Shown here in pieces: positions 32,429 through 55,162 of a stretch of DNA of 64,000 bases. Position 1 is the stretch's first letter; the number at the start of each line of letters is the position of its first letter. This DNA is from a virus. The translations under genes and the position numbers were made by a program. The stretch covers positions 64,001-128,000 of IMG/VR virus record IMGVR_UViG_3300010965_000002, one strand, 5' to 3'. The notes beneath the pieces were generated by a model. That model saw only the letters and a program-made list of their open reading frames with translations. It had not been told where the DNA came from and ran no database searches.

Positions 32429-33025
32429 ATGGCATATACTTTAATAGTAGAAAAAGAAGAGGCTCGGATTGTTTTCATTCGTGATGCAACCGCGCCTCTA
32501 CTGCTCGACGCTTTGTGGCCGCCTGTTGGATATAACTATCTGCACTGGCCCTTTGCGGTGTCCGACGAAGTGCTAGCCGCGCCGTGGAACTACGTGATTC
32601 AAGGCAACAAAATTGTTGCCTCGACTTATACCTTTCAAAGTAACGCTATCGAAAACGCAAAACGTGGTGGATTACTTGTACAGCTTGCGCGGGCAACTAA
32701 TAGACATCGTCGCATGGTCTTGAAGGAAGATATACAAGGTCAAGCCGATGTGTATCGTCTGAAAGCAGACGAGGCTACACGCTTCTTAGCAGATACTCAA
32801 CAAAGTCCAAGTGCATTTCCTTGGCTGTCTGAGACTGCGGCGTTTGAAAGCCTCACCCTTGAGCAATCCGCAAATCAGATAATGTTTCGACATACGCAGC
32901 AGCAAGCAATCCTGCGGCATACTGAGAATCAACGTCGGTGGTTTACACGTCGTATCCTGACAGCGGGTGTTAACGAACTTGAAACAGTAAGAACAGAGTT
33001 GACAGACTATGAACGCAGAGGTTAA
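32429..33025 (+). CDS. tail fibre assembly-like protein
   Basis: QADVYRLKADEATRFL..FPWLSETA..LEQSANQI pattern typical of genes following fibre genes. Confidence 0.6.
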   Translation: MAYTLIVEKEEARIVFIRDATAPLLLDALWPPVGYNYLHWPFAVSDEVLAAPWNYVIQGNKIVASTYTFQSNAIENAKRGGLLVQLARATNRHRRMVLKEDIQGQADVYRLKADEATRFLADTQQSPSAFPWLSETAAFESLTLEQSANQIMFRHTQQQAILRHTENQRRWFTRRILTAGVNELETVRTELTDYERRG

Positions 33026-33698
33026 ACCTTCATGGTGGTATGGTGATGATAGTACCAAGCAAGTGCCTGGTCAATTAGTACCTGCCGATAATCCAGTGCC
33101 GTATTGGACAAGCCAATTACTGAATGAGTCAGAAGCAGATGCCATCTACCATGCAGTGATTGCCCAATATACCCGCAAACAATTGCATCGTGTGTACAAC
33201 CCAGATGGTCAAGGCGATCAAATCAATCTTGACAGTCGATACACGCATGCCTACGACTTCTACCAAGTTCCTGGTGCTGCGGACATTGAAGCCCGCTTCA
33301 ACGCGGAGGTCGCACGCTGTGCAAGAACGTGGTGGAACAAAGAATCTGTGCCTGTGTACACGCCGCAGATTCTGGGCTATGAAGAAAAATGTCGGTTCCG
33401 CACTCATTGTGACAACAGTATTTGGAATGACCAAGGCTGGACTCAGAATGACCCGATGCGAGACGTTACGGCCTTGCTGTACGTCAGTGATTGTGTGCCA
33501 ACGGTCACCCGGCCGAACCAGCACAGCGGAGGTGAGCTAGTGTTAGATAACGTACAAACGGCAAATGGCCCAGTACGTATAGCTCCCAAAAAAGGTCAGT
33601 TTGTGATGTTCCCGTCACATCCTGTTTACCGTCACCAAGTAACGCCAGTCACTCGCGGTTATCGTATCGCGTTTGTAAACTGGTGGAGCCTAAGGTAG
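33009..33698 (+). CDS. 2OG-Fe(II) oxygenase, prolyl 4-hydroxylase-like
   Basis: HCD..TALLY..GGEL..MFPS..RHQV..GYRIAFVNW (HxD...H...R). Confidence 0.9.
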   Translation: MNAEVKPSWWYGDDSTKQVPGQLVPADNPVPYWTSQLLNESEADAIYHAVIAQYTRKQLHRVYNPDGQGDQINLDSRYTHAYDFYQVPGAADIEARFNAEVARCARTWWNKESVPVYTPQILGYEEKCRFRTHCDNSIWNDQGWTQNDPMRDVTALLYVSDCVPTVTRPNQHSGGELVLDNVQTANGPVRIAPKKGQFVMFPSHPVYRHQVTPVTRGYRIAFVNWWSLR

Positions 33699-33704
33699 AT
33701 CGAA

Positions 33705-34409
33705 ATGCTCAAACTAAAACCGCAATGGTCTTTACGTCAACGCTCTGATGGTAGCTGGTCCCTGACTAGCGAGAATTACCATCAGGCAGTTCTCCCCGAA
33801 TATGCCGCTATTCTCCAAAAGCTAGTTCCAGGTGTTGAACCAGACACTTTGACCGACGCTGAATTCGATCAGATTGAGTACCTCACTGATCGCGGCTTCC
33901 TGAATGTTGATAACCACCCCGATGCGCCAGCTTGGGAATTGTGTGGTGCCAACTTCCATTCTGTTCAGGAACAACTCAAGCACGTTACCTTCTTCGTTGT
34001 TGACACTACGCCTAACGGTGTCGGTGCAACAATCCGTGAGACTCTCTTAACTTCTGGTCTACAGGAACAAGAGATTGACCCACGTCTGACTATCGCAGTC
34101 AGTGATTCATACCAGACGTTACCAAATGTTAAGGGTAACATGCTGCCAGTTGTTTGCAACCGTATGCGCGTGACTGTCGGCCCAATGGTGTTTCCATGGG
34201 GTACGCACGTTCGTGACAGTGTACTTGCGTCAGATCATTATCTGCCACAGCCTGGATACCAATTGCCTCATGCCTTTGACCAACTGCAACGCGGTTGGCT
34301 GGCTGTTGCCATATTGCAATTCATAGGCACCAACAAACTACGCTATGTCAATTTCTTTGTTGAATACAACATGGCACAACAGGAGTTCAAGCTATGGCCT
34401 GCGAAATAA
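33705..34409 (+). CDS. TOMM/LAP-type leader peptide-binding protein (RRE plus E1/ThiF-like scaffold), stand-alone
   Basis: LKPQW..LTSE..YAAILQKL..YLTDRGFL..AWELCGAN..LTIAVSDSY..VTVGPMVFP follows the cyclodehydratase C-protein N-terminal consensus as I recall it; no CxxC, no YcaO domain. Confidence 0.68.
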   Translation: MLKLKPQWSLRQRSDGSWSLTSENYHQAVLPEYAAILQKLVPGVEPDTLTDAEFDQIEYLTDRGFLNVDNHPDAPAWELCGANFHSVQEQLKHVTFFVVDTTPNGVGATIRETLLTSGLQEQEIDPRLTIAVSDSYQTLPNVKGNMLPVVCNRMRVTVGPMVFPWGTHVRDSVLASDHYLPQPGYQLPHAFDQLQRGWLAVAILQFIGTNKLRYVNFFVEYNMAQQEFKLWPAK

Positions 34410-34825
34410 GACAGTGCAACGCCAGTGATGAACGGCAGCTACGCAGGTGGCTGTTAGTCCATGATCCTGTGTTTGCAATGCACCGCCAACTCAAGGACTA
34501 CTTTCTGGCACCTACTGAAAGTTTCGGTGTGCTCTGTACGTTTGTAGAGAACGAAATCAAGAGCGCCTGTTTCTTTTCAACGTATTCAAACAAGTCGTTT
34601 ATCCACCTTTACATTGGTGACGTATCTGATCTTGAAGCCTTTCGTCAGTACATGAAGTTTCCATGTCAAGCATTCTTGCGTCCTGAACACGCACCGGATG
34701 CAGCATCAGGTTGGAAAAATGTGTTGGACGTAACACCAGGCTTTATGGTAGATCATCCAGCGTACAACGGTGTGTTCTCGCGTGTTGCTCCTCGTTTCGC
34801 AGGCGCTGTCTACGAACATCCTTGA
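34394..34825 (+). CDS. hypothetical, possible GNAT-fold protein
   Basis: N-terminal EIRQCNASDERQL resembles GNAT beta1-alpha1; no clear acetyl-CoA loop. Confidence 0.45.
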   Translation: MACEIRQCNASDERQLRRWLLVHDPVFAMHRQLKDYFLAPTESFGVLCTFVENEIKSACFFSTYSNKSFIHLYIGDVSDLEAFRQYMKFPCQAFLRPEHAPDAASGWKNVLDVTPGFMVDHPAYNGVFSRVAPRFAGAVYEHP

Positions 34826-34834: not shown

Positions 34835-35374
34835 ATGAGTCAAATCATAAGACGATGTACGCCTGAAGACTGGCGTTCAATGGCACGCCTGCGAATGGCG
34901 AGAAACACTCATGCAGGCAGTCGCGTATCTGAGTTCACTTCCAATCCAATCTCCAGCGTAAGCACCCGCTACCAACACGACCCACACATGGCTATGGGCT
35001 GTTGGCAAGACGGTGTGATAGCGGCATACATCTGTGCTTATGCTGGCACAGATTACTGGGTACTTGATCTGATGATTTCAAGCGGCGACCCCAAGCAACT
35101 TCAAGCCTGCTTGGAACAGTTGTTGCAAGAGTTTGAAGCCAAGGGCACGTATCAGTTCTGGTATGCCTTTCCAGAGAAGTGGGCCAGAGCGTATCGTAGC
35201 TTCTGGAAGTCAGGCGCACCCAGCTTGCGCAAGTACACAATCGAAGACGTGGCTGTGATACCAGCCCGTAAGAAAGTTGATGACCCATTTATTTGGAACA
35301 ACATTCTGCACGAATGCGTGGTTCCAGTCCCATTGTTGTTAAGGAGAAGCTATGTTGCAGAAGTGGCTAAATAA
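34835..35374 (+). CDS. probable GNAT-fold protein
   Basis: IIRRCTPEDW..GCWQDGVIAAYI..WVLDLMI..EAKGTYQFW. Confidence 0.55.
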   Translation: MSQIIRRCTPEDWRSMARLRMARNTHAGSRVSEFTSNPISSVSTRYQHDPHMAMGCWQDGVIAAYICAYAGTDYWVLDLMISSGDPKQLQACLEQLLQEFEAKGTYQFWYAFPEKWARAYRSFWKSGAPSLRKYTIEDVAVIPARKKVDDPFIWNNILHECVVPVPLLLRRSYVAEVAK

Positions 35375-36236
35375 GTTCAAAAACCCTCATATTCAGCATA
35401 TCCATGTACCAGCTCATGTGCTCGGTTTTTTGGCCCTGACGTATGCCCTAACTGCCCTATCTTGGTGGTCAATAGGGGGTTTTGTGCTATTCAATCTGTG
35501 GTTATCCTGTTTCGGAATGAGCATTGGATTCCACCGTTATTTCAGTCACCGTGCGTTCAAGGTCAATCGGTTCTGGCATCACGTAATGCTGTGGGGCGGA
35601 ACGTTTGCTGGACAAGGCTCGGTGGTGTTCTGGGTTGCGCTGCATCGTATCCACCATCCCAACAGTGATAAATCGGTAGCCGACATCCACAGTCCAAAGT
35701 TCAAGGGGTTTTGGAACGCATACATGGGTTGGATATTCACACTAGACCCTGCGGAAGTATCACTGGCTAAATCCACTGACATCATCCGGGACAAGTGGTG
35801 CCGATGGGAACACCGTAACTACGACAAGATCATGTGGACGTATTGGACGGTCCTTGTTGGTACGGCAATCGCAGTGCCCACATTACGACCATTCATTGCT
35901 GGTGCGTTAATAGCGGGTATGTGGAGTATTCATCAAGAGGCAATTATCAACAGCGTGTGCCACGACAGCCGATTCGGTGTGGCCCCGTATGAAGATCGTA
36001 CCCGCGATGGTAGTCGTAACGTACACAGTCTGCGCTACGTAACATGGGGTCAGAGTCTCCACAACACACATCATGCTTTTGCAGGCTCACCGAACTTCGG
36101 TACACCAGAAGCTCCTGATATTGGATACCGCATTATCCGATTGATTCAAACGGGCGAACATGCAGTGCATCAAGCTCACCAGACCCAGCAACGCACTACT
36201 GCTGAAAACGTCGTGCCGCCTTCGGTTGTTGCGTAA
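35352..36236 (+). CDS. membrane-bound fatty acid desaturase-family di-iron enzyme 1
   Basis: His boxes GFHRYFSH, HRIHH, HNTHH; hydrophobic segments; DIHSP. Confidence 0.92.
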   Translation: MLQKWLNKFKNPHIQHIHVPAHVLGFLALTYALTALSWWSIGGFVLFNLWLSCFGMSIGFHRYFSHRAFKVNRFWHHVMLWGGTFAGQGSVVFWVALHRIHHPNSDKSVADIHSPKFKGFWNAYMGWIFTLDPAEVSLAKSTDIIRDKWCRWEHRNYDKIMWTYWTVLVGTAIAVPTLRPFIAGALIAGMWSIHQEAIINSVCHDSRFGVAPYEDRTRDGSRNVHSLRYVTWGQSLHNTHHAFAGSPNFGTPEAPDIGYRIIRLIQTGEHAVHQAHQTQQRTTAENVVPPSVVA

Positions 36237-36264: not shown

Positions 36265-36465
36265 ATGACATTACGCGACATCTACAATCAGGTTGTGGCC
36301 GAAGACAATTCGCCAGCCCAATGTGAAAACCAGGCAATGGCTATTCGTCGTTATGCTGAACAAGAGTTGGGCGTGACAGACCCCGACAAGCTGCACCAGT
36401 TGTTCAACGAAACGTATGAACTGTTAAATGACGGCACGCCGTTCGACGAACAGCCTGCGGCTTAA
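36265..36465 (+). CDS. small acidic protein (66 aa)
   Basis: AAGGA RBS before ATG 36265; track start at 36160 overlaps the desaturase. Confidence 0.7.
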   Translation: MTLRDIYNQVVAEDNSPAQCENQAMAIRRYAEQELGVTDPDKLHQLFNETYELLNDGTPFDEQPAA

Positions 36466-36576: not shown

Positions 36577-37506
36577 ATGGAACGCTTGTATCGTGGCTAT
36601 AACGGTGTGGCTGACGTACCCCGCACAGCAGTTGACCAAACATACGAATTTTGGTTCGATAAACCTCGTGACATCATCAGCTTAAGGGCAGCCAGCATTC
36701 GTGCTGCAAAGGAATTCGGGCAGAAGTACGCTGACAAAGAGATTGTCATTCTCTACTCAGGCGGCATGGACAGCGAATGGCTGTGTGAAGCCTTCTACTT
36801 AGCAAAGGTGCCATTTAGACCTTTGATCGTGGACTACAATAACGAGAACTCTCATGATCTGTATTGGGCTCGCCGCTACCTACGCCGTCGCGGTATTACC
36901 AACGCAATCGAATGGCAGTTCGACCTACGTAGCTGGTACTCCTCACAAGAGCAGTTTGAAATAGCTGAACGTTGCCAAATGAGTGAGCTTGCCTACAGCG
37001 GCCAGTTCCGGGCAATGTTGGAGTTTCAATCACCTGATCGCATCTTCTTGAATGGCTATGACGAGCCCGTGATTACCGCTGACGATAGTGGTGCGGAACG
37101 CACATGGAACTTGACCTACAACGAACGGCATTTCGCAATCCACAAGTTCATGGATGCCTATGGTTTTAACACACAGCCTGGTGGTTGGGTAGACGCCAAT
37201 GTGTTCGCTGCATATACGCACTGTCCTATGTGGCAGATGCTGGTTTCAAATCTTGTGCAACCTCAGGTGTGGAATTCCGAGCTAATCAAGTTCCAGATTT
37301 ATAGCCATTCCTTCCCATTCATGGAAGCGCGTACAAAGTACACGGGGTTTGAGTCCATGCTTGACGTGATCGTGCCTGCCACGAAGAAATGGCGCGAGTA
37401 CACGGACAAGACCTATGGAACGCAATGGCTGCAAGACTGGTCACGCCCCATCAAAGACGTGTGGGCTGAGTTACATGGAGACACACCATATGTACGACCT
37501 TACTAA
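36577..37506 (+). CDS. PP-loop (adenine nucleotide alpha-hydrolase / asparagine synthase-like) ATPase 1
   Basis: ILYSGGMDSE; C-terminal ARTKYTGFE; ATG 36577 preferred over track start. Confidence 0.8.
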   Translation: MERLYRGYNGVADVPRTAVDQTYEFWFDKPRDIISLRAASIRAAKEFGQKYADKEIVILYSGGMDSEWLCEAFYLAKVPFRPLIVDYNNENSHDLYWARRYLRRRGITNAIEWQFDLRSWYSSQEQFEIAERCQMSELAYSGQFRAMLEFQSPDRIFLNGYDEPVITADDSGAERTWNLTYNERHFAIHKFMDAYGFNTQPGGWVDANVFAAYTHCPMWQMLVSNLVQPQVWNSELIKFQIYSHSFPFMEARTKYTGFESMLDVIVPATKKWREYTDKTYGTQWLQDWSRPIKDVWAELHGDTPYVRPY

Positions 37507-38155
37507 GCTAGCAGCACTAGCGACTTTCCCTTGGGAGAGTGTGTATGAAGGATTAGCTAAGAGTCGCAAGACTATGACGACCTTCTATGGTGACGTACAC
37601 AGCACGAAGTTCACCCATACGCTTGACGCCCGCTGGAGTGACCGCGATCAATGGCGCTGGTACAACGCCTTAAAGCACGGTGTCAACGTAGCAGGCTTTA
37701 ATGTCAACGTTACTGCGTTGCCTGCTGAGTACATGCAGTTCGGCAAACACTGGTGGGCACGCTCACACGAACCAATCTGGGTGCCAACGGATAATGCCCG
37801 ACACTTTGGTGAGCTACGCCAGTGGATTAAAAACTCAGGCATATTCAAGCACACGGGTCGGCAAACATTCTTTGTACAAACAGCAGGTCAGTCAAGTCCA
37901 GAGCATGTAGACTTTGAGCCTGCTGACGTGCCAGAAAATCTGCGTGCTCCCGGTGAGTTCATCTGGCTTACACCACCAGACAGACCAAAGCATCTGAGTG
38001 TTAAAGGTGTTGCGGCTCCTTGGTGCTGCTGGTTTAACCACTTTGACCGCCACGGAACTGAGGCAGAGTCAGACACACGATGGAGCCTCCGAATTGACGG
38101 CGGCTTCACAGACGAATTCAAAGCATCCTTACCAACTTCTGAAAGTTTATCATGA
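37490..38155 (+). CDS. cupin/DSBH-fold putative 2OG-Fe(II) oxygenase
   Basis: EHVDF..WFNHFDRHGT..RWSLRIDG; GGAG RBS before ATG 37490. Confidence 0.6.
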   Translation: MYDLTKLAALATFPWESVYEGLAKSRKTMTTFYGDVHSTKFTHTLDARWSDRDQWRWYNALKHGVNVAGFNVNVTALPAEYMQFGKHWWARSHEPIWVPTDNARHFGELRQWIKNSGIFKHTGRQTFFVQTAGQSSPEHVDFEPADVPENLRAPGEFIWLTPPDRPKHLSVKGVAAPWCCWFNHFDRHGTEAESDTRWSLRIDGGFTDEFKASLPTSESLS

Positions 38156-38784
38156 CATCACCCGTTTACTTCAACACTGCAAACCTTGAACTCGCCCAAA
38201 CCTTGCGCAAGCATTGGATGGCTATTCGTGACGAAGCCGAAGCCTTGTTTGCCGAAGAGGGTGAAGTGCCTAAAATCAATGCAACAATGGAAGGCCAAGA
38301 CGGTCGTTACATGGAATCTGTAGGCATTGCTAAATACACAGGCACCAATGCCAGCATCCATCTGCAAGTTGTGCCTGATCTGCTTGACCCGCCAGAAGCA
38401 CGTATCGCGTTGTCACCTGCTGGTGTGGCTGGCCGTTTGCGCCGCCAGAAGAAGTGCCCAATGACCATGGGCATTCTTGCGCCTTATGGTGAACACGTTG
38501 GCAACATTGGATTCAACCGCTTACATCCAGGTGCCAAGATCAACCCGCACTATGGTGTCATCACCTCTAATCGTTTTGTGCGTATCCATTTAGGCTTGCG
38601 TACTGACCCTGGTGCTACGTTCTTTGCCAAAGACAACGATAGCTACACCTGGAAAGACGGTGAGACAATGGCCTTTGACGATGCAACCGTGTTGCACTGG
38701 GTCGAACACAAAGGTCAAAGCTCACGTTTGATTCTGTGTTTGGACATTGCCAAGGCTGCGTTTCCTGATCTGCAGGCACTGTAA
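38152..38784 (+). CDS. aspartyl/asparaginyl beta-hydroxylase family (AspH/LpxO-like)
   Basis: RLHPGAKINPHYG..RIHLGL..WKDGETMAFDD..LHWV..RLILCLD. Confidence 0.9.
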   Translation: MTSPVYFNTANLELAQTLRKHWMAIRDEAEALFAEEGEVPKINATMEGQDGRYMESVGIAKYTGTNASIHLQVVPDLLDPPEARIALSPAGVAGRLRRQKKCPMTMGILAPYGEHVGNIGFNRLHPGAKINPHYGVITSNRFVRIHLGLRTDPGATFFAKDNDSYTWKDGETMAFDDATVLHWVEHKGQSSRLILCLDIAKAAFPDLQAL

Positions 38785-38806
38785 AGCCCAGCTAGATAGG
38801 CTGGCT

Positions 38807-38817
38807 AACTGTAAATA
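38807..38817 (+). promoter_or_regulatory. candidate late promoter AACTGTAAATA
   Basis: Intergenic, 39 nt before ATG 38856; identical to 13149-13159 (-). Confidence 0.35.
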
Positions 38818-38855
38818 CCTATAGTAGTCAGTCTATTTAATTTTTAGAGGTTCGT

Positions 38856-39458
38856 ATGAAAAGAGCTTTGTTGGTCAGCTTAGACAGTGATCTAGGCAAG
38901 CACATGAAACGTGTGCTGGAGGAGGAGGGTTACGAAGTAACTGCTACTTCCAGACATGGTTTGCCGGATACCCTTCATTTTGATTTAGGCGTAACCGACG
39001 TACCTAAGTTTGAAGCTGCCTCGTTTGATGTATTGATCTACAACCTTGGTGTCAGCCAAGTTAACAGATCGCGTGTCGAGGTGATACGCACAAACGCGAT
39101 ACTGGCCTGTGATGCACTTCAAGCCTTGGCCCCTACGCTGAAAGCGGCAGGTCATGTCATTGTGTTTTCCAGTGGTTGGGGCAGCATACGTCAAACTGTG
39201 CGTTCAGGCGAAGCCACAGAAATCACGTACCGTATGAGTAAGGCCGCTTTGAACATGGGTGTCGCTGTATTGTCTAATGCGTTCACTAAACTGAATTGGA
39301 TTTTGATGCAGCCCGGGTTCATCACGACCAAGATGAATACCAATCCTAAGAACTTGCCATCGGCTGACCCGTATGCTGCGATGCAGGGTGTGCTCAAACA
39401 TTCACTGGCTTGCAAAGAGAGGTACGCATACATTGACTACATGGGCAATGCTCAATGA
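38856..39458 (+). CDS. short-chain dehydrogenase/reductase (CsgA-like)
   Basis: SSGWGSI..YRMSKAALNM (YxxxK)..QPGFITTKM. Confidence 0.88.
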   Translation: MKRALLVSLDSDLGKHMKRVLEEEGYEVTATSRHGLPDTLHFDLGVTDVPKFEAASFDVLIYNLGVSQVNRSRVEVIRTNAILACDALQALAPTLKAAGHVIVFSSGWGSIRQTVRSGEATEITYRMSKAALNMGVAVLSNAFTKLNWILMQPGFITTKMNTNPKNLPSADPYAAMQGVLKHSLACKERYAYIDYMGNAQ

Positions 39459-40009
39459 TTACCGACAAGCTCACGCCTGTTAGTGGCACGGTATCAATCG
39501 AAGCCTACATAAAGACACGCTTTATGCTAGAGCTACAGAACCTTTGGATACTGACGTGCATTGACGAATCCCGGTTTACCGTGTTACGTGCCCAGCCATT
39601 CAGAGCCAATGAGCCGAAAAGAAAAGGCATAGAGCAGTTCTGGACTGTGTTGCACCATGCAAGAACAGTGCTAAAGCTATTCGACGTTGAGGTCAATGAT
39701 CTGAAACAGTATGCGAACAGGCCTAAGTTGTATTTAGAAGTGCTGTACACAAAAGTCGAAGGTATAAAGGAAGAGACGATTGCAGCCTACCTGTATAAAG
39801 AAAAATTCATGTTGACGGATACTTCGTTGCATGAGTCTAGTACCTTACGGAAAGGGCGTGTCGTCGATTTACTTCTCTGGTTCTCCTTTCCAAGTCTGAG
39901 TTTTCACAAAGGGTTTGTGTATGAAACGTTGAAGACTGCAGGCGTCGATGTTGGTAAAGCTGACATACTGAGACCTCTACAACCGCCAATTATTCAAGTA
40001 AATATCTAA
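39455..40009 (+). CDS. hypothetical, possibly degenerate RimJ/RimL-type GNAT
   Basis: ATGA-coupled; C-terminal TLRKGRVVDLLLW weakly recalls RimL-type ends. Confidence 0.45.
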   Translation: MITDKLTPVSGTVSIEAYIKTRFMLELQNLWILTCIDESRFTVLRAQPFRANEPKRKGIEQFWTVLHHARTVLKLFDVEVNDLKQYANRPKLYLEVLYTKVEGIKEETIAAYLYKEKFMLTDTSLHESSTLRKGRVVDLLLWFSFPSLSFHKGFVYETLKTAGVDVGKADILRPLQPPIIQVNI

Positions 40010-40020: not shown

Positions 40021-40824
40021 GTGGTAGCAATGTTAAAGAGTTTGCATTTTTGGCGTGTTTGGCTTGTGCCTCATGTCTTGTTGGTCGCTGGGCTGGCGCT
40101 GTATGGCGGTGACTGGCGTACACTGTTAACGGGCTTTGTGTTCTACACATTGATATCAGGCCTTGGTGTAGCCGTTGGTTTTCACCGCTTCTTCTCTCAC
40201 AAAGCATTCAAGACAAATCGGTTTTGGGAACAGATGATGCTTTACTGGGGTTCAATGGCTTGCCACGGACACCCATTGTTCTGGGTTGCTCTGCATCGTG
40301 GTCTGCACCATCGTTTCTCTGATACAGACCGTGACCCTCACAGTCCAGTTGCTCATTCACTGTGGACATCGTATCAAGGTTATGCGTTTGACCCTAAGTT
40401 GATTGAACAAGTACCCTTACGTGCTGGCACTGATTTCCTACGACACCCTGATTGGCAGTGGACGGTCAAACACTATCACAAAGTGCTGTGGCTTTCTTGG
40501 GTTGTAGTTGCCGTTGTATCTTGGGTGTTGAATGCACCTTGGTTGATGATTGGTCTTGCTGGTGCTCAAACATGGGCTATTCACCAAGAGGCATTGGTTA
40601 ACGTTGTTGGTCACGTAAGTGGTTTTGGTGCCTATCGTAACTACGATGTTGACGACAAAAGTGTCAATCGTAATCTGCTTGGCTTGTTCACTTGGGGCCA
40701 GGCGCTGCACAACAACCATCACGGTGATGCTGGTAATCCTAGCTTTGCCAACTCCGCCAAGTTTCCTCAACGCTTTGAGTTTGACCCAAGCATGTTGTGG
40801 ATTTGGACAATCCAGTCTCGTTGA
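40021..40824 (+). CDS. membrane-bound fatty acid desaturase-family di-iron enzyme 2
   Basis: GFHRFFSH, HRGLHH, HNNHH; DPHSP; GTG with AAGGAG RBS. Confidence 0.92.
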   Translation: MVAMLKSLHFWRVWLVPHVLLVAGLALYGGDWRTLLTGFVFYTLISGLGVAVGFHRFFSHKAFKTNRFWEQMMLYWGSMACHGHPLFWVALHRGLHHRFSDTDRDPHSPVAHSLWTSYQGYAFDPKLIEQVPLRAGTDFLRHPDWQWTVKHYHKVLWLSWVVVAVVSWVLNAPWLMIGLAGAQTWAIHQEALVNVVGHVSGFGAYRNYDVDDKSVNRNLLGLFTWGQALHNNHHGDAGNPSFANSAKFPQRFEFDPSMLWIWTIQSR

Positions 40825-46849: not shown

Positions 46850-47440
46850 ATGGACTATCCTTTCTACATTCGACAAATCGGCAGTATCAGACCTGAACTG
46901 CTGCAACAACTTCAACAGGCGTATCTATCTCATACCAAGTTTGCACTAGCACCTGGGTTCACACCACAGTTCGGTTTACAACAGCCTGTTGACTTTGACT
47001 TAGGTCCACTGCAAGCCGAAGTGCTAGCTGACCTTTCACGTTGGTTTGCACCAGCTACGTGCGTACAACTAAAGTACAACGTGATGCCTCCTGGCAAAGG
47101 ACTTGGTGAACACAGTGACTTGGATGGTTATGGAGACAACGACTACACGATGTATTCGTGCTTTGCGCATCACCGCGTACACATCCCGCTGATAACAAAT
47201 CCCGGTGTGGAATTTTGGCATCGCCGTACAAGAGCCTTAGCTAGTGAGCGTCAGGCAACACCACAAGTGGGCGGAGTGTACTTGTACAACGACTATGTTC
47301 TACACAGCGTACAAAACAAAGGGTCTGAAAACCGCGTGCATCTGGTTCTGAAATTTGCAGACCCGAAGCATGTGGTTAAACGTCAGTTACTCATTCAACA
47401 GCAAATCAAAATAGGCGAATACTATGAATGCGTCAAGTAA
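46850..47440 (+). CDS. AspH-like hydroxylase, MDYPF paralogue 3
   Basis: MDYPF..EHSD..RVHIPLITNP..GGVYLYNDYVLHSV..RVHLV; ATG 46850 preferred over track start. Confidence 0.85.
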   Translation: MDYPFYIRQIGSIRPELLQQLQQAYLSHTKFALAPGFTPQFGLQQPVDFDLGPLQAEVLADLSRWFAPATCVQLKYNVMPPGKGLGEHSDLDGYGDNDYTMYSCFAHHRVHIPLITNPGVEFWHRRTRALASERQATPQVGGVYLYNDYVLHSVQNKGSENRVHLVLKFADPKHVVKRQLLIQQQIKIGEYYECVK

Positions 47441-48029
47441 GGTCTTCATCATAGGCTGCAAGTCCGGTTTTGGCAAGGAGCTTCTGGCGCATTGCCAAAC
47501 AGAATGCCTCGCACAAGGCGTATCCCGTGAAGACTTCAATCTCTTTGATCTTGCCAGCGTAAAACGCCTAGGTGAACGCATCATTGGAGAACTACCTGAC
47601 GTTGTGGTTTTTAATTCTTATGCGCGAACGGTAGACAAAGAGCATGTGGCCTATGCGCAGTTAGAAGCCCTAAAAGTTCTGTGGCCTATGCTAAAGCCTC
47701 TTGATTTGACTGTGGTTGTGGTAGGCTCAGCTATAGCGTGGGAACAACCAAACGGAGGCAACGCTACGCTGCTGTATCAACGAAGCAAGAAAGATTTGGC
47801 TGCCTATTGTCTAAAGAATGGTTGGTTGGACATCACCAATCCTCAACACAAGGCACGCATGGTGTTGTTTGAACCCGCTACGATGACCAATCGACCGGAA
47901 TACGCCAAAGCACGACGCACTCCTCTGTTAAGCGTTGAAAGCAGTTGGGCATTGATGCGAGGTGCAATAGCCAGCAAGCTACCGTTTGTACGTGTTGGTG
48001 CTCAAGGAGGAACGCATGTTGTTATCTAA
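47424..48029 (+). CDS. SDR-like Rossmann-fold protein
   Basis: IIGCKSGFG (GxxxGxG)..VVVGS..YQRSK (YxxxK). Confidence 0.7.
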   Translation: MNASSKVFIIGCKSGFGKELLAHCQTECLAQGVSREDFNLFDLASVKRLGERIIGELPDVVVFNSYARTVDKEHVAYAQLEALKVLWPMLKPLDLTVVVVGSAIAWEQPNGGNATLLYQRSKKDLAAYCLKNGWLDITNPQHKARMVLFEPATMTNRPEYAKARRTPLLSVESSWALMRGAIASKLPFVRVGAQGGTHVVI

Positions 48030-48837
48030 CAAGACGGCTGTTATCACAGGCTGCGGTGTTACAGCTACTGGCGCAGGACTTGGCGCACAATACGCGCTGG
48101 CGCTTGCAAGAGAAGGCGCGAACGTTGTTCTGACCGACGTTGACATGAAACGGTTGGAGCCTACGATTGAACAGTTCAAGCGCGAAGGCTTAGGCTATAG
48201 ATATATCGTGCTTGATCTGCTAGAAGCCTCTGGTGCTAAAGACCTAATGGCATTTGCGTATAGGGTCTTTGGTTCTGTTGACATCCTTGTGAACAATGCA
48301 GGCGTCGTACCAAACACGCTGAGGGAGACTAAAGCCAAGTTTGATATGTATCAACGCCGACGCACAGGCGTAGCCACTCAACCTTTGTCGTTGCTTGACA
48401 TAACAGACAACGAGTGGAATAGTTTTTGGGAACTTAACGTTCATGCGTCCTTTCGTTGTCTAAGGGCTGCGTGTAACTACATGGCAGAACAGAAAAGCGG
48501 CAGGATTATCAACATCGCTAGCGTGTCAGCCTTCAGCAACAGCGGTGGCTTTAGTCCAGGTTACGCTGCCAGCAAGGCAGCCGTCCACTCGTTAACGATT
48601 AGCGTAGCAGAAGAATGTGCAAGGCACGGCATTCTGGTTAATACCTTTGCGCCTAGTGGTGTCATAGACACGACTTGGTTGAACAAGCCGCTTGCCGAAC
48701 GTGAACGCTTAGAAAGTAGCATACCTATTGGTCGTCAAGCGACCTACGAGGACTACACCAAAGTAATCGTTATGCTTTCAGGCACGCACTATTTTGTTGG
48801 TCAACTTATTTCTCCTAATGGAGGCTTGGTAACATAA
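48016..48837 (+). CDS. classical SDR (FabG-like)
   Basis: KTAVITG..GLG..DILVNNAG..IINIAS..YAASK; AAGGAGG RBS before ATG 48016. Confidence 0.92.
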   Translation: MLLSNKTAVITGCGVTATGAGLGAQYALALAREGANVVLTDVDMKRLEPTIEQFKREGLGYRYIVLDLLEASGAKDLMAFAYRVFGSVDILVNNAGVVPNTLRETKAKFDMYQRRRTGVATQPLSLLDITDNEWNSFWELNVHASFRCLRAACNYMAEQKSGRIINIASVSAFSNSGGFSPGYAASKAAVHSLTISVAEECARHGILVNTFAPSGVIDTTWLNKPLAERERLESSIPIGRQATYEDYTKVIVMLSGTHYFVGQLISPNGGLVT

Positions 48838-49457
48838 TGGACTACCCTTTTCTGGTCGCGCCGATTGCGCGAGTATCTGCTGACTTAGTTGCACGTCTTG
48901 CTGACGCTGCCCAAGAGCTTCAATACGATGCTTTCCCTTCGCTTCAAACTCTGTTGCACACAGACTATCACCCACATACCGAAGCGTTCAAAGCCGCGTG
49001 TATGGAATTGCATCGTCACTTGGGTTTGTTTACTGATGACCAGATCGTAAGGTTTACCGTAACCAAACTTCGTCCTGGCCACGTTGCCGCAGAACACAGT
49101 GATTTCTACGTTCAGAAAGGCGCGCCTAACAACTTAGCGATCATCAATAACCAGCACAAGATTCATGTGCCTTTGATTACCAACCCTTTGGCACATTCGT
49201 TGCATCGGCGCACACAGTTGCTACCACACACTGCGTATCATATGCCTACGGGCTATGCTTATGCGTACAACGATGTAGCCTGGCACAAGATCGTCAACGC
49301 TGGTGCTGAAAACCGCTATCACTTGATTGTGTTTTATAAGGACCCCACGCAAACGGTTAAACGTCGAATAATGGATGCCTTGTCGATTGATTATCACAAC
49401 TTCTACGAAGACCTCAGTTACAAGTACCCATTTGAACATCATGTAGTGCGGGATTAA
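48837..49457 (+). CDS. AspH-like hydroxylase, MDYPF paralogue 4
   Basis: MDYPF..EHSD..KIHVPLITNP..AYNDVAWHKI..RYHLI. Confidence 0.85.
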   Translation: MDYPFLVAPIARVSADLVARLADAAQELQYDAFPSLQTLLHTDYHPHTEAFKAACMELHRHLGLFTDDQIVRFTVTKLRPGHVAAEHSDFYVQKGAPNNLAIINNQHKIHVPLITNPLAHSLHRRTQLLPHTAYHMPTGYAYAYNDVAWHKIVNAGAENRYHLIVFYKDPTQTVKRRIMDALSIDYHNFYEDLSYKYPFEHHVVRD

Positions 49458-49514
49458 GCAGATGGGGTCAGCGAATTTTTGCTTAACGGTGGACTTGTTA
49501 TAAAAGGACTCTCA

Positions 49515-50366
49515 ATGGTTAGCTTCGGACAAAGAGCCTTACACTCGTGGGTCGATGTTGTAAATAAACGTACTGGTGGTAGACAACCAAAACTTGCGAC
49601 GCCTAATGAGACAGTAGCGGGCATAGTTGCTCACCAAAGCGTGCGCAGGTTTGAAAAGCGCACGGTTAGCAGGGAACTGCTTGAGCTACTGGTGTTGGCT
49701 GCACAGTCTGCTCCTACGAGTGCTAACCTACAGTGTTGGAGTGTTGTGGTTGTGACCGACCCTAAGCTCAAAGCTAAATTTCTGGTAGCAGGCAACAACA
49801 ACACGACCATAGAGCAAGCGCCTTGTTATATGGTCTGGTTAGCAGACTTGACCCACGTAGCCACCATTTTAGGTGATGACGTAGAGGGCTTAGATCATTT
49901 AGAAACGTTCTTGGTGAGCAGCATAGACGCGGCCCTAGCGGCCCAGTCGTTTTCCATAGCGGCACAGTCTATGGGCTTAGGCACCGTGTTTCATGGTTCT
50001 ATACGGTACAAACCTGAAATTGCTATAGAAGCCTTGTCCTTGCCTAAGCACACGTTTCCAGTATTCGCTATGGCAGTAGGTTGGCCTAGTAAAGAGCTTG
50101 TGGTGCATTGGAATCACCCGGATGAAATAAAACCGCGTATGCCTCAGCATATGGTTCTGCACTATAACAAGTATGAGCCTAGAAAGTTGAGTCAGTTGTT
50201 AGATTATGACAAGGTAGTTGACGACTTCCACAGGGACAATGTAATCTCGCCTGAAATCTATCCAGCATTAAAGCCGTGGAGGTCCAGTGCCGTAGAACGT
50301 TTCACTTTGATGTTGAACAGAAAACTTGAGGCTATGATTAAGACCATGGGCTTTGGAACACTTTGA
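49515..50366 (+). CDS. FMN-dependent nitroreductase (NfsA/Frp-like)
   Basis: HQSVRRF..AAQSAPTSANLQCWSV..IDAALAAQ..GLGTVFHGSIR..KPRMP; AAAGGA RBS before ATG 49515. Confidence 0.9.
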   Translation: MVSFGQRALHSWVDVVNKRTGGRQPKLATPNETVAGIVAHQSVRRFEKRTVSRELLELLVLAAQSAPTSANLQCWSVVVVTDPKLKAKFLVAGNNNTTIEQAPCYMVWLADLTHVATILGDDVEGLDHLETFLVSSIDAALAAQSFSIAAQSMGLGTVFHGSIRYKPEIAIEALSLPKHTFPVFAMAVGWPSKELVVHWNHPDEIKPRMPQHMVLHYNKYEPRKLSQLLDYDKVVDDFHRDNVISPEIYPALKPWRSSAVERFTLMLNRKLEAMIKTMGFGTL

Positions 50367-50376
50367 AAGCGCAAGC

Positions 50377-50799
50377 ATGAAAATACAAAATGAGTTACTT
50401 GAAGGCAGCGCCGCTTTACCCGCTTTCTTGCGTGCGTATGCCGAACTACTCGACCTCGGTTGGGGGCGACCATTCACAGTCCACAATGAAAAACACAAGG
50501 TGTGTTACGCCAAAAGCGACAGTGGCAACGTTATGGGCGGTATTGTCTACGGAATGAATCCACTGACCAAGCTAGGCTGGATAGTGTTTTCCTTCACCGT
50601 ACCTGAGTTTCGACGGCAAGGCGTTTATACAAGACTCCATAGAGAAGTCGAGTTGTTGATGACCCGTGGAGGTATGACAGACTTGGCTTCACATGTCCAT
50701 GTAGACAATGAGGCTCAGATTAAAAGCTGCGAACGTGTAGGTAAGAAGCCTGAGTATTACCGTATGCACAAGAGTCTGAGGCAAACCGACGAAGCCTAA
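50377..50799 (+). CDS. GNAT acetyltransferase
   Basis: WIVFSFTVPEFRRQGVY (R/QxxG); start could be TTG 50353. Confidence 0.85.
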   Translation: MKIQNELLEGSAALPAFLRAYAELLDLGWGRPFTVHNEKHKVCYAKSDSGNVMGGIVYGMNPLTKLGWIVFSFTVPEFRRQGVYTRLHREVELLMTRGGMTDLASHVHVDNEAQIKSCERVGKKPEYYRMHKSLRQTDEA

Positions 50800-50824: not shown

Positions 50825-51646
50825 ATGATGGACATCAATGAATTCAAAGACCGTTATGAACGGGACGGGGCCGTTTGGCCCATTAGCATTTTCTCTGCCG
50901 AAGAAATTGCTGGATACAAGCTCAAGCTCGATCAGGCGGTGGCCGACCTCGATTTGATGAACAGCGACTACCGTTGCAAGTCTCAGGTGTTGTTTCCGTG
51001 GGTGGCAGAGATTGCCAAGTCACCTAAGCTGACGCCATATCTGACGGCCTTGCTCGGTGACAGCTACCATTGCTGGGATACGTTGTTCTGGATTAAGCAA
51101 CCGGGCGATAACAAGCGCGTGAGCTTTCACCAAGACGGTACGTACTGGAACTTTGAACCTGAAAAAGGTCTGACCGTGTGGCTTTCGTTTGACGGTTCAA
51201 CCGCAGACAAGGGTGCTATTCAGTACGTCACTCAGCCTTACGTAAAGACCATTCGCAAGCATACTGACCGCAAAAGCAATGACAACCTGTTGATGCGTGG
51301 TCAGACACTCGACCGCAATCAGGAAGAAGTTGAGCACACCTGTATTGCCGAAGTGCCTGCTGGAAGCATCGCCATGCACAGTCCTTTCATCATGCACGGC
51401 TCTGTGCCAAACATGACAGATAACACACGGGCTGCGTGTGGCTTCTTGTTTGTCAAAGGTGATGCCAAGCCGCGTGAAGCGTATTCACCTGAGTCTACGC
51501 TGTGGATACACGGTGATGTACCTCCACATTTCATGCTGGACCCAGCACCAACTGGCGATTGGGAACTCGACAAGAGTGCGTGGCAAGCGGCCTATGATCG
51601 ACAACACGCAAACTACTACAAAATGAGGGAAGTAAATGCTGAATAA
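50825..51646 (+). CDS. phytanoyl-CoA dioxygenase (PhyH)-family 2OG-Fe(II) oxygenase
   Basis: FWIKQPG..FHQD..LTVWL..GSIAMH..HGSVPN..R. Confidence 0.92.
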   Translation: MMDINEFKDRYERDGAVWPISIFSAEEIAGYKLKLDQAVADLDLMNSDYRCKSQVLFPWVAEIAKSPKLTPYLTALLGDSYHCWDTLFWIKQPGDNKRVSFHQDGTYWNFEPEKGLTVWLSFDGSTADKGAIQYVTQPYVKTIRKHTDRKSNDNLLMRGQTLDRNQEEVEHTCIAEVPAGSIAMHSPFIMHGSVPNMTDNTRAACGFLFVKGDAKPREAYSPESTLWIHGDVPPHFMLDPAPTGDWELDKSAWQAAYDRQHANYYKMREVNAE

Positions 51647-52181
51647 ACTACACGCCTTCGTCTTTGGCGACTGGCGCGATAAGTCCACAGCGGTTGCAGG
51701 TACATTCGATGCTCCAGGTGTGTACGTGATGGCTGCCCGAGCACATGGCTTAAAAGGCTTGCTTGGTGGTCGTCACAGCTACATCGTTCACGTAAGCGGT
51801 GGGGGTGAACACACGGTGTTTGAAATAACCGACCGTGAGACATTGGGTTATCAAGGCGCTACAGAGTTCAAGAGCTACAAAACCAATCCAGGGTTCGACG
51901 AACCTGTGCTGTACCGTGTGCTGCGTAATGGCTATCAGGAATGGTTCGGTGCGCAGCCTTATGTTGTGTACCACACGCAAGTATGGCCTGAGCTTGTAGA
52001 CTTGGACGCGCTGTTTGAACTGTACCCGCACAAGAACGATCAGTTCAAGTTGTTCTACCTGAATTGCAACACGTTTGTTTCTTGGGGTGTCTATCTGGCA
52101 CGCATGATGGGGATTGACGCTTGCTTCCCTAAGACGTTTGGCACCAAGTCCGATGCTTATTGGGAGAAGTTCTATGTATGA
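51636..52181 (+). CDS. DUF3750-like / permuted NlpC-P60 fold protein
   Basis: AARAHG..GRHSYIV..WFGAQP..YP..NCNTFVSW; His precedes Cys. Confidence 0.55.
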   Translation: MLNKLHAFVFGDWRDKSTAVAGTFDAPGVYVMAARAHGLKGLLGGRHSYIVHVSGGGEHTVFEITDRETLGYQGATEFKSYKTNPGFDEPVLYRVLRNGYQEWFGAQPYVVYHTQVWPELVDLDALFELYPHKNDQFKLFYLNCNTFVSWGVYLARMMGIDACFPKTFGTKSDAYWEKFYV

Positions 52182-52572
52182 GTTTTCAATGACGTTCACC
52201 CGTAAAGATACGGCGGTGGAGTGGCCTATGACTATTGAGGACGATAATATCACGCAATTGTACGCTAGCCGACAGCGTGCCTTGCTGAGTTCTGTTGGCG
52301 TGGTGGGTGTGTTCACCAGTTTCACACCTGATGGTATGACAGCCAGAACGGTGACGGTATGGGAATCGACGGTAGCTTCGTCTCAGTTTCAATATGCAGA
52401 CAGAGAGGCGTTTATAGCTGCAATCAGTAAATACTGCAAGGACAATGACGTTAGCTTGGTAACGAATGCCGACTTTGTTCCTGACACAGAAGCCCTCAAG
52501 ATCAAGAAATTGGCTAACCGCTTGTCGCCAAGTGCAGCAGGTTTGGAACTGGCAAAGGTACTAGAACAATGA
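52174..52572 (+). CDS. hypothetical protein (132 aa)
   Basis: GGGAG RBS before ATG 52174; coupled on both sides. Confidence 0.65.
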   Translation: MYEFSMTFTRKDTAVEWPMTIEDDNITQLYASRQRALLSSVGVVGVFTSFTPDGMTARTVTVWESTVASSQFQYADREAFIAAISKYCKDNDVSLVTNADFVPDTEALKIKKLANRLSPSAAGLELAKVLEQ

Positions 52573-53804
52573 ACACGCTAGCGCATCGCATAAAAGAGTT
52601 GCTACCTCAAGGGTTTGCAACAATGTCAACCATTGATGCTGTGTCTGCGTCTAATGCCTTCATCTATGACAGTGAAGGCCGTCGGTACATCGACTTTGCA
52701 AGCTCCTCTTCGGCTATGAATCTGGGTCACCGTCATCCAGAAGTTGTCGAGGCCATGCAAGACCAGTTGGACAAATTTGTTCACACCTTCTTTCAGCAAG
52801 TGCCGTACAGCAGCTATCTGGATTTGGTTGAGGTGCTGCATCGTATTACACCTGGCGAGTTCCGCAAGAAGACAGTGCTGAATTCCACAGGCTGTGAAGC
52901 CGTTGAAACGGCTGTGCGTATTGCCAAGGCACATACCAAACGGCAGACCGTGTTGTGCTTCACAGGTTCGTTTCACGGTCGTAGCTTGCTAGGTTCTGCG
53001 CTGTCAAACAATGCAGGTACAGCCCTACACGATCTGAACAACATCGTGTGCGCCCCATTCGTGTCAATGGATGACGAGCCTTTCGATGCAATCGCGTATG
53101 CAAAGCAGTTGGCGAACCTAGTGCCGCTGGACAAGATAGCTGCGATCATCATTGAACCCGTGCAAGGCGAATCTGGTTTCAACGTGGTGCAGAAACCCTT
53201 CTTGGATTGGCTGCGTTGCCTTGCCACAAACAACGGTACAGTCCTAATCGTTGATGAAGTGCAATCAGGATTGGCGCGTACAGGTACCATGTTTGCCTTA
53301 GATCAGTATTACGTGGAGCCTGACATCATCTTGGTGTCGAAGACATTGGGTGGCGGCTTGCCGTTGTCAGCCGTTGTAGGCCGCGCAGAAATTATGGATG
53401 CGCCCACTACGTTTGGCGGTACATTCAGCGGTACACCTTTGGCAGTTGCGGCGGCATTACGCGTTATTGAGGTCATCGAGACTCAGCAAGTGTGCCGTAC
53501 CTCACAGACGTTGGGTGTACTGTGCATGAGCAGACTGCAGGACTTCGCCAAGTACCCTTTCGTCAAAAAGATGCGCGGCTTAGGCTCAATGCTGTCGTTG
53601 GAAATCGACGTGGAGAATTATCCTCAGTTGACGACCACCATACAACGTCGGGCACGCGACAACGGCTTGCTGTTGCTGAGTGCAGGTATCAACAAGTCGC
53701 GCATTCGGTTCCTGTATCCGCTGACGATTGAAAAATCGGTGCTAGACGAAGGACTGACCATACTCGACAACGTATTCAAGGAACTTGCGAATGAACTACG
53801 GTAA
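52569..53804 (+). CDS. class III PLP aminotransferase (GabT-like)
   Basis: YIDFAS..LGHRHP..STGCEAVE..EPVQGESG..DEVQSGLARTG..KTLGGGLPL..TFSGTP. Confidence 0.95.
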   Translation: MNTLAHRIKELLPQGFATMSTIDAVSASNAFIYDSEGRRYIDFASSSSAMNLGHRHPEVVEAMQDQLDKFVHTFFQQVPYSSYLDLVEVLHRITPGEFRKKTVLNSTGCEAVETAVRIAKAHTKRQTVLCFTGSFHGRSLLGSALSNNAGTALHDLNNIVCAPFVSMDDEPFDAIAYAKQLANLVPLDKIAAIIIEPVQGESGFNVVQKPFLDWLRCLATNNGTVLIVDEVQSGLARTGTMFALDQYYVEPDIILVSKTLGGGLPLSAVVGRAEIMDAPTTFGGTFSGTPLAVAAALRVIEVIETQQVCRTSQTLGVLCMSRLQDFAKYPFVKKMRGLGSMLSLEIDVENYPQLTTTIQRRARDNGLLLLSAGINKSRIRFLYPLTIEKSVLDEGLTILDNVFKELANELR

Positions 53805-54801
53805 GTATAGCCTTGACGACCACTACCGTTGGGGCTTTGGTGATTCTTGGTTCAACATGCCAGAGAATCCACGGGATTGCTTTCGAGTGTCTCTGGGTTC
53901 GTGCAAACGTGGACCTCTGTCGCTGCGTGAAGAATGCGTTATTGCTGCAAAGCAGTTGTCTGAAACGATTACCAAGCCTCTGTTGGTGGGACTATCCGGT
54001 GGCTTTGACAGTCAGGTGGTGTGTCTCTCTTTCATGGCGGCTGGCGTACCGTTCACACCTGTGGTGCTGCGCTTAACCAGCGATAGCGGGGCGTTTTACA
54101 ACCAGACTGACTACGCTAACGCCATGAAGTTCTGTAGCCTCAAAGGCATTGTGCCTTTGGTGGAGACACTGAACCTGGACGAGTTCTATCGTGGTGAAGG
54201 TCTGCGGCTCATTCAGGACAACTGCATCACGGTGGCTGAGATAGCTGTGCAACTGCACTTGGTAATCAAGTACAAGGACACTCATGCGTATGTCAACGGA
54301 GGCGGTGACCCTACGCTCTCGTTCATGAATGGCAAGCTGGTGTACTCGCTTATGCCTACTCCGATTCAACAGTACATGATTAACAACGGCATCGAAGGAT
54401 GTCTCAAGTTTTTCATGTATTCGCCTGAACAGATAGCGGCGTATCTGCAACATCCTGTGATGCAGATGTACAACGCGGGCTGCGAGACACTACACGACGG
54501 CTACAAAGGTCCAAACATCTTTACGTTCGTGGTCAAGCCCATGATGTACTTGAACCAGTGGCCGGAGTTGGTGCAGCGAAAGAAACAGACAGGCTTTGAG
54601 CAAGTTCCCTACTTTGCAAAAATGCGGGAGCTTACATTTAGCTTGAACGAGCACATAAATCCAAGGGCGAAGAAGATCACTTGGACCTATGAGCAATTAG
54701 TTGACCACCTAATGAATGGTCAAGGCGCGATTAAAACATGGAGAAGTGTTGATGAACACGATACATCTGGACCCTACCCTAGCGTATTCACAAGCGTTTA
54801 A
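53791..54801 (+). CDS. PP-loop ATPase 2, paralogue of 36577
   Basis: VGLSGGFDSQ; C-terminal RKKQTGFE; AAGGA RBS before ATG 53791. Confidence 0.8.
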   Translation: MNYGKYSLDDHYRWGFGDSWFNMPENPRDCFRVSLGSCKRGPLSLREECVIAAKQLSETITKPLLVGLSGGFDSQVVCLSFMAAGVPFTPVVLRLTSDSGAFYNQTDYANAMKFCSLKGIVPLVETLNLDEFYRGEGLRLIQDNCITVAEIAVQLHLVIKYKDTHAYVNGGGDPTLSFMNGKLVYSLMPTPIQQYMINNGIEGCLKFFMYSPEQIAAYLQHPVMQMYNAGCETLHDGYKGPNIFTFVVKPMMYLNQWPELVQRKKQTGFEQVPYFAKMRELTFSLNEHINPRAKKITWTYEQLVDHLMNGQGAIKTWRSVDEHDTSGPYPSVFTSV

Positions 54802-55162
54802 CTTTGTGATGCGTGAGTGGGTCAGAATGCTTGAAGCAGGTACCGCGAGCCAAGAACTTTGCTTTAGCAATGCAACCTCAGTGGTGTATGCTAAAGATGA
54901 CCAAGACAAGGTTGTTGGTGCCATCCTGTTTTCAGTGGATGACACGAAACGTCAAGGCTGGATTTATCTGGCTATGGTTGACGCTGACAGACGCAAGCAG
55001 CATCTGTATCAGGACATGTATGCGTTGGTTGAACAGGAATGCAAACGCAGAGGTGCCGTTACCCTGTCGTCGAATGTGCATGTGTCCAACACACCAATGC
55101 TTAACGCGTTGAAGAAGAATGGGCGTGAAGCTCAGTGGTTGAAGACGACCAAAGCCCTGTGA
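54752..55162 (+). CDS. GNAT acetyltransferase, paralogue of 50377
   Basis: WIYLAMVDADRRKQHLY..SNVHVSNTPM; GGAG RBS before ATG 54752. Confidence 0.82.
   Translation: MNTIHLDPTLAYSQAFNFVMREWVRMLEAGTASQELCFSNATSVVYAKDDQDKVVGAILFSVDDTKRQGWIYLAMVDADRRKQHLYQDMYALVEQECKRRGAVTLSSNVHVSNTPMLNALKKNGREAQWLKTTKAL

Follow-up and report, generated by a model that had tools for sequence, protein, structure and literature searches.

What does a phage modify, or make, with a run of 32 tailoring-enzyme genes lying directly behind its tail fibre genes? Many aquatic phages devote 10–60 kb beside their fibre genes to tailoring enzymes of no known product. The locus considered here is a block at positions 33009–55162 of a 64,000-nt window, i.e. 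bases 64001–128000 of the 176,943-bp viral contig IMGVR_UViG_3300010965_000002 (completeness estimate 72%), and it supplies a named candidate substrate for such enzymes, namely PVG(S/T) repeats. The major capsid protein of the contig is 51% identical to its counterparts in Burkholderia phage BCSR5 and Ralstonia phage RSL1, identifying the contig as an RSL1-like myovirus. Judging from gene content and neighbourhood, we consider it probable, though far from certain, that this distal part of the fibre run is a system for the post-translational decoration of Pro/Ser/Thr-rich repeats on fibre and other virion proteins.

A preliminary description, made from the bare sequence, had recognised 32 co-oriented, closely spaced open reading frames (ORFs) that end at a single terminator. 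This architecture holds: all ORFs lie on the + strand with intergenic gaps of −53 to +114 nt, and the hairpin that follows them is exceptionally stable (−26.6 kcal/mol, z −7.3; 0 of 200 shuffles as stable), even if a simple terminator scan of the window made no call at this site. Promoter scans of the window stayed at or below chance level. The first ORF overlaps the end of the preceding 198-aa gene, as had been noted, and the block thus prolongs the fibre gene run; the label 'fibre assembly' given to that gene, by contrast, found no convincing library match. Nor is the block an 'island' by composition, since its GC content at third codon positions (0.51) equals that of the structural genes (0.50), meaning that it is not a recent foreign insert.

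Central to the argument is gene 2, whose product had been proposed to combine an E1-like domain with a recognition element (RRE) of the kind found in ribosomally synthesized and post-translationally modified peptide (RiPP) pathways. It has no Pfam or NCBIfam match, and its Atlas structure bears out the proposal by aligning with the leader-binding protein of thiazole/oxazole-modified microcin (TOMM) systems at a TM score of 0.76 over 230 residues (feature score 0.92). All RRE loci whose sequence extends far enough on the upstream side (the window, L001/2, L003, L004, L084, L085, L087, L089/90 and L102) encode Pro-rich repeats (PVG, PAPA, PTPS) there; three further loci, L086, L088 and L091, begin too late for this check. 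In the genome studied here, three proteins have PVG(S/T) tails, each encoded in the fibre region, and one of them, at 19265–20158, had escaped the preliminary description. RSL1, Motura and phiXF1 contain neither the cassette nor such repeats in 40 kb of their tail regions. Most RRE loci belong to one related group, leaving about three independent phage lineages, myovirus-like and podovirus-like, in which the block is linked to Pro-rich virion repeats.

The podovirus-like contig L102, which has an SU10-type capsid, carries a seven-gene cassette behind a (PPVGS)n protein. The repeat gene overlaps that of the RRE homologue (hhalign E 3e-5), and there follow PP1 (the first of two PP-loop ligases resembling the asparagine synthetase AsnB), the gene-4 acetyltransferase of the GNAT family (E 2e-8), a desaturase, a cupin, a methyltransferase and a hydroxylase. 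In L042, flanking proteins are 51–91% identical to those of L102 and the start of the repeat gene is orthologous (69% over 42 residues), but the repeats are of a Gly/Thr/Asn type and are followed by a ligase of the second (PP2) clade and a GNAT, with no RRE, PP1 or desaturase within the locus DNA examined. Between these two close relatives, the kind of repeat and the cassette are exchanged jointly. The podovirus-like cassette of L042 (L042:3081–7448) additionally encodes one more SGGxDS protein as well as a hydroxylase, and represents a second repeat-and-cassette type.

The enzyme most tightly tied to PVG repeats is gene 1. A reverse search by repeat alone returned 41 loci, many of which lie in the wrong reading frame or belong to viruses of a different kind; a gene-1 homologue is present in four of the 41 (361 kb), compared with one of 77 ligase-selected background loci (1,100 kb). 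In the small phages L108 and L129, the hydroxylase gene begins 16–25 nt after the PVG repeat gene, and neither record shows a ligase or desaturase. Repeats can therefore occur with the hydroxylase alone, whereas each testable occurrence of the RRE core was accompanied by repeats. Taken together, the repeats beside every testable RRE locus, the joint swap and the hydroxylase-only pairs make modification of virion repeats the best reading, most strongly so for the hydroxylase, and they lend comparative support to the earlier suggestion that PVG-tailed virion proteins are the target. Two other phage contigs have in common a set of three small-locus genes (L107:6404–7475 and L131:2027–3227), in which a fibre-accessory-like gene, a short Cys-rich gene and a 2-oxoglutarate (2OG) hydroxylase gene immediately follow a PVG-containing gene.

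Comparison with relatives further shows that the 32 genes constitute a conserved core with a hypervariable insert rather than a single fixed pathway. The unrelated 134-kb contig L089 holds ten of them in window order (genes 2, 3, 4, 5, 7, 12, 27, 28, 31 and 32), flanked by a PSPT-rich and a holin-like gene and with a gene-1 homologue just upstream. This core comprises the RRE/E1-like adaptor, three small GNAT-type or other genes, the two AsnB-like ligases, two desaturases, a PhyH enzyme and a possible papain-like gene, and the block of the window is an L089-type core with about 21 variable genes inserted and gene 1 in the lead. Ahead of this minimal cassette, L089 also encodes a collagen-like (GPT)n protein (L089:4083–5240), another possible hydroxylase substrate. 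In related loci, genes 1–5 and 7 still follow the fibre genes immediately, and the content further downstream differs; close relatives keep the fibre and core genes at 75–99% identity with the remainder replaced. In L085, for instance, most fibre-region and early core proteins are 94–99% identical, while PP1 is 49% identical and positioned elsewhere and the cupin set differs. Relatives also add kinase-, methyltransferase- and carbamoyltransferase-like genes, among them an adenosine-phosphosulfate (APS)-kinase-like gene in L004 and L085. Close relatives from wastewater runs align with the window as far as the gene for a 66-aa protein and diverge beyond it, marking position 36461 as a recombination boundary. 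The 66-aa protein had been considered as a universal precursor or carrier and was ruled out, having no homologue in L089 or L084; no small ORF is common to all cassettes. In a megaphage-sized contig of 718 kb (JGI 3300078620), gene lengths and the succession of Pfam families agree with this cassette, which there follows a gene of 3,463 aa, its RRE being inferred. Close relatives occur as contigs in wastewater RNA libraries, an occurrence that carries no information on timing, strand or transcription. A metagenome scan added one short contig, single-protein locus scans found nothing, and a desaturase match labelled 'Acinetobacter phage' proved to be a bacterial chromosome contig.

Coordinates are collected in Table 1. 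Pfam supports both desaturases (with three His boxes each), the radical SAM protein, the nitroreductase and the class III aminotransferase, all as previously listed, along with TauD, PhyH, 2OG-FeII_Oxy_3, AspH-like and two GNAT proteins; catalytic motifs are seen in most oxygenases, both desaturases, four short-chain dehydrogenases/reductases (SDRs) and the radical SAM protein. Some earlier counts need trimming. Of the roughly 12 claimed 2OG/cupin proteins, Pfam detects ten (two of them at E 0.02–0.05), the one at 37490 has the HxD..H motif only and that at 44427 gained no confirmation; seven form one paralogue family. The four SDRs divide into one strong, two weak and one recognised by motif alone, and the '2–5 GNATs' into two found by Pfam and one by fold (34835), with 34394 and 39455 unassigned. 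What had been called a Cys/His acyl-enzyme fold (51636) shows the His and Cys residues and a weak DUF3750 match only. Solved-structure sequence searches with PP1, the RRE protein and gene 28 returned nothing informative, gene 28 being without a solved relative. Genes 3 and 4 show no similarity to each other in profile comparison, and a complex prediction for genes 2 and 3 (score 0.01) was counted neither for nor against. No glycosyltransferase or nucleotide-sugar enzyme was identified in the block; one weak glycosyltransferase family 2 (GT2)-like gene, absent from the earlier inventory, lies 10 kb upstream (22443–23099; Pfam E 0.003 here and 1e-4 for the L087 homologue, below cut-off) and is conserved in L001, L004 and L087.

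Table 1. Features of the enzyme block and of the fibre region preceding it (window positions).
Feature	Position	Strand	Support or remark
297-aa protein, long C-terminal PVG(S/T) repeat ending SPVG, candidate substrate	19265–20158	+	
GT2/GT-A-like glycosyltransferase candidate among fibre genes	22443–23099	+	acidic DxD-type motif
536-aa tail fibre protein	28236–29846	+	L087 homologue carries PVG tail at its own end
130-aa virion structural protein, (TPPVG)n tail ending SPVG, candidate substrate	29855–30247	+	phrog_2155, E 6e-9
Tail-collar fibre N-terminal domain protein	30729–31592	+	PF12571, E 1e-9
169-aa protein, (TPVG)n tail ending SPVG, candidate substrate	31905–32414	+	
198-aa conserved gene, end overlaps first enzyme gene	32429–33025	+	no convincing library match to fibre assembly
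Gene 1, prolyl-hydroxylase-like 2OG-Fe(II) oxygenase (HCD..H)	33009–33698	+	PF13640, E 2e-15
Gene 2 (core), RRE + E1-like protein of TOMM leader-binding type	33705–34409	+	
Gene 3 (core), 143-aa protein, conserved C-terminus	34394–34825	+	RRE loci only
Gene 4 (core), divergent GNAT-fold protein	34835–35374	+	Z 15.1, rmsd 2.7, 144 aligned
Gene 5 (core), membrane desaturase	35352–36236	+	three His boxes
Gene 6, 66-aa acidic protein	36265–36465	+	only some relatives, not in minimal cassette
Gene 7 (core), PP-loop ATP ligase PP1	36577–37506	+	asparagine-synthetase fold, shortened N-terminal part
Genes 8–11 (variable): cupin, AspH-like oxygenase, short SDR, 184-aa protein	37490–40009	+	
Gene 12 (core), second membrane desaturase	40021–40824	+	three His boxes
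Genes 13–26 (variable), a: six AspH-like/MDYPF cupins, TauD-like oxygenase, 184-aa gene	40840–50799	+	
Genes 13–26 (variable), b: three SDRs, NfsA-type nitroreductase, GNAT	40840–50799	+	
B12-type radical SAM protein within genes 13–26	42856–44439	+	CxxxCxxC
Gene 27 (core), PhyH-family dioxygenase	50825–51646	+	51% to L089 homologue
Gene 28 (core), DUF3750-like His/Cys protein, candidate permuted papain-like acyl enzyme	51636–52181	+	weak DUF3750 match, His/Cys residues
Genes 29–30 (variable): 132-aa protein, GabT-like class III aminotransferase	52174–53804	+	
Gene 31 (core), second PP-loop ligase PP2	53785–54801	+	paralogue of PP1, separate clade
Gene 32 (core), GNAT	54749–55162	+	directly after PP2 here, in L089 and in L042
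Hairpin, likely bidirectional terminator	55170–55211	+	A-tract before, U-tract after

The enzymatic steps that we infer from gene content, folds, gene order, conservation and linkage to the repeats would proceed as follows. Gene 1, which has both the HCD and the distal His of the 2OG-Fe(II) HxD..H triad, would hydroxylate prolines of PVG(S/T) or (XP)n repeats; taken by itself, this prediction strikes us as likely. The RRE/E1 protein would recruit the repeat-bearing protein to PP1 and the gene-4 GNAT. A small acyl or amino-acyl moiety from pools linked to acyl carrier protein (ACP) or coenzyme A (CoA) would then be desaturated, oxidised, edited and attached via an acyl-adenylate or GNAT transfer, a prediction about which our doubts slightly outweigh our confidence. 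Cupins, SDRs, the radical SAM protein and the aminotransferase (in relatives also kinases, methyl- and carbamoyltransferases) could diversify this moiety between strains, and the upstream GT2-like gene product may glycosylate the same hydroxyls. The likely benefit would be a strain-variable virion surface that influences adsorption, stability or host recognition. In its most far-reaching form, the scheme would have an RRE/E1 adaptor without the cyclodehydratase YcaO steer an AsnB-like ligase, a GNAT and desaturases to structural repeat tails, yielding a covalent, strain-variable, non-sugar (lipid-like) coat, with the module moving between unrelated lineages together with its repeat substrate. 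This we offer tentatively, with the balance tilted against it.

Several points count against decoration of the repeats. Chemically, these offer hydroxyls plus, in some proteins, a C-terminal carboxylate, such that an amide ligase or N-acyltransferase would find neither an amine nor a side-chain carboxylate. The PVG C-terminal end is not universal either: the L089 repeats are internal and the L102 protein ends in SPK. The repeats are all that the repeat proteins were seen to share, with no common leader sequence. The L042/L102 swap is a single pair, the RRE loci reduce to the few lineages given above, repeats occur without the RRE core in L108, L129 and L106, and most repeat matches have no linked enzyme. 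Among solved structures, moreover, gene 1 best resembles PKHD/PiuC hydroxylases (E 4e-4) and no proven prolyl hydroxylase.

Finally, ligase/desaturase/GNAT cassettes exist without Pro repeats. A profile search with PP1 retrieved 1,189 representative proteins, and members of the same ligase family lie in freshwater phage cassettes (L008, L009–L012, L019, L029, L030 and L036) together with one to six desaturases, gene-4-like GNATs, Rieske proteins, TctC solute-binding proteins and a family of 380–410-aa proteins, but with neither RRE nor Pro repeats. The interior of the L008 cassette includes ACP and AcpS-like genes, and L008 also has a SpeD-like one. The content of these cassettes suggests that the desaturase/ligase/GNAT chemistry takes place on a carrier-bound acyl group, and the freshwater cassettes are possibly a separate small-molecule pathway. 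Enzymes of the GabT-like, NfsA-like, SDR, TauD and PhyH types, all present in our block, usually act on small molecules; the first three, in combination with the distant ACP/AcpS genes, point to a small acyl moiety being made first. The preliminary argument that a tailoring-only cluster needs a ribosomal scaffold was accordingly too strong. It could thus be that gene 1, perhaps with the glycosyltransferase, alone acts on the repeats, while the other enzymes turn ACP- or CoA-linked precursors into a free, diffusible acyl-amide-like compound with a role in signalling, toxicity or superinfection, their genes owing their location to a recombination hot spot in the fibre region. We regard this as unlikely, if worth keeping in view: the RRE/PP1 core was never seen without Pro repeats where testable, the cassette changes with the repeat type in L042/L102, the RRE fold is a peptide binder and none of the 32 genes encodes a transporter or solute-binding protein.

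The block has no ACP gene, and that of the phage itself (C1:29943–30146, DSL motif) lies 67 kb away. It was rejected as cassette evidence because RSL1, BCSR5, Motura and phiXF1 own one without a cassette. The gene for this canonical ACP, of a kind common throughout the RSL1-like clade (L095, G000:C1:29923–33000), directly follows genes recognised by eye as coding for a 323-aa solute-binding-like and a PspA-like coiled-coil protein. The search for AcpS also missed the weak L008 gene, making AcpS absence uninformative. In a tree of 32 ligases, the 12 RRE-linked PP1 proteins form one side of a branch (100/97); with no rows excluded, most RRE-linked rows being near kin and an arbitrary root, this reads as clustering, not co-evolution. 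Among bacterial genomes, only two metagenome-assembled genomes of Bdellovibrionota contain ligase homologues, with no cassette genes recognised beside them. These (L099 and L100) carry two ligase-family members in tandem, one of which is part of an 830-aa protein.

The desaturases also bring host membranes into play. Both are of the membrane type, and LpxO, which hydroxylates lipid A, is among the AspH-like enzymes. Desaturation, hydroxylation and acylation might thus remodel the host lipids or envelope in order to block superinfection or support late infection. In line with this, phage-encoded membrane desaturases of cyanophages were shown to be delta-9 lipid desaturases, although their substrates are C16 fatty acids and they serve as auxiliary metabolic genes, whereas those of our block are paired within a ligase/GNAT/RRE cassette (Roitman et al., PMC5776448). 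Envelope remodelling seems improbable to us, as it leaves the RRE/E1 protein, the two ATP ligases and the Pro-repeat link unexplained, and the position at the end of the fibre run suggests late expression.

A last alternative would have the block modify phage DNA or tRNA. PP-loop, GNAT (Mom-like), radical SAM and 2OG enzymes all occur in nucleic-acid modification, and there are weak matches to MnmA. We hold this to be very improbable. Of the two PP-loop ATPases, previously recognised as such and here found to be paralogues, PP1 is closer in fold to asparagine and beta-lactam synthetases (Z 12.7–14.5, asparagine synthetase 14.5) than to QueC, TilS and TtuA (Z 7.5–8.7). Nor would nucleic-acid chemistry account for membrane desaturases or an RRE, and the genomic linkage is to virion genes.

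How does a repeat-decorating cassette compare with known systems? Despite the full-length TOMM leader-binding fold of gene 2, the block differs from the machinery for TOMMs, or linear azole-containing peptides, in that it has no YcaO by Pfam (PF02624 is absent at E ≤ 1 from G000 and G001, both incomplete records, with controls positive), no identified precursor and a nitroreductase (gene 25) that is closest to NfsA (E 8e-44) rather than to SagB/McbC dehydrogenases and lacks a counterpart in the minimal cassette. It is therefore not a TOMM cluster, and the earlier term 'RiPP-like' fits the RRE/E1 protein alone. Lasso-peptide sets likewise unite an RRE, an AsnB-like ligase and a His/Cys protein; the present block departs from them in joining its RRE to an E1-like domain within one protein, in having a pair of ligases and in a Cys protein of DUF3750-like instead of transglutaminase-like type. 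No lasso precursor was seen, and the asparagine-synthetase fold of PP1 is no demonstration of lasso-type cyclase activity. Mycobacteriophage enzymes reportedly modify structural proteins by sugar transfer only, and have neither an oxidative nor a ligase or desaturase arm; the fibre region studied here contains a GT2-like gene. As for JamABC-like ACP-linked desaturase pathways, an ACP together with an AcpS-like gene is found inside the distant L008 cassette.

The conceptual precedent is a prediction by Iyer et al. (2010, PMC2938197) that operons of hydroxylase, PhyH and sulfotransferase genes modify co-encoded tail-collar or collagen-like proteins, accompanied by a ten-dioxygenase array in cyanophage Syn9. 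Our block resembles these operons in its beta-hydroxylase and PhyH dioxygenases, its acetyltransferases beside tail-collar and repeat proteins and its tandem dioxygenases. Theirs centre on hydroxylation and sulfation, and the accessible part of that work names no RRE/E1 protein, AsnB-like ligase or desaturase; no sulfotransferase or phosphoadenosine-phosphosulfate (PAPS) synthesis gene is among the Pfam matches of the 32 genes, several of which have no family assignment. Cyanophage and jumbo-phage clusters (Iyer et al. 2021, PMC7824862) share variable 2OG, cupin, carbamoyl- and methyltransferase genes but, as far as the accessible text goes, are sugar-centred, read as host capsule or metabolite systems and have no RRE/AsnB/desaturase core. 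The cassette is hence a layered variant of a loosely known kind, whose RRE/ligase/desaturase combination is without description in the literature searched; that search found no paper on this cassette, most subscription papers being outside its coverage. Cultured phages yielded no match to the block DNA, the radical SAM protein, PP1 or the GT2-like gene.

Going forward, nature provides minimal versions of the system, i.e. the repeat–hydroxylase pairs, the seven-gene L102 cassette and the ten-gene L089 cassette, as well as a swap control in L042, and the question can therefore be put to the test in E. coli with no need to grow the phage. Should it prove correct, decoration of the repeats would extend virion modification beyond sugars and add new peptide-tailoring enzymes. 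With respect to sugars, an ORF beyond the window (G000:C1:136765–137430) begins like a DXD-type sugar transferase (IPKIIHQTW).

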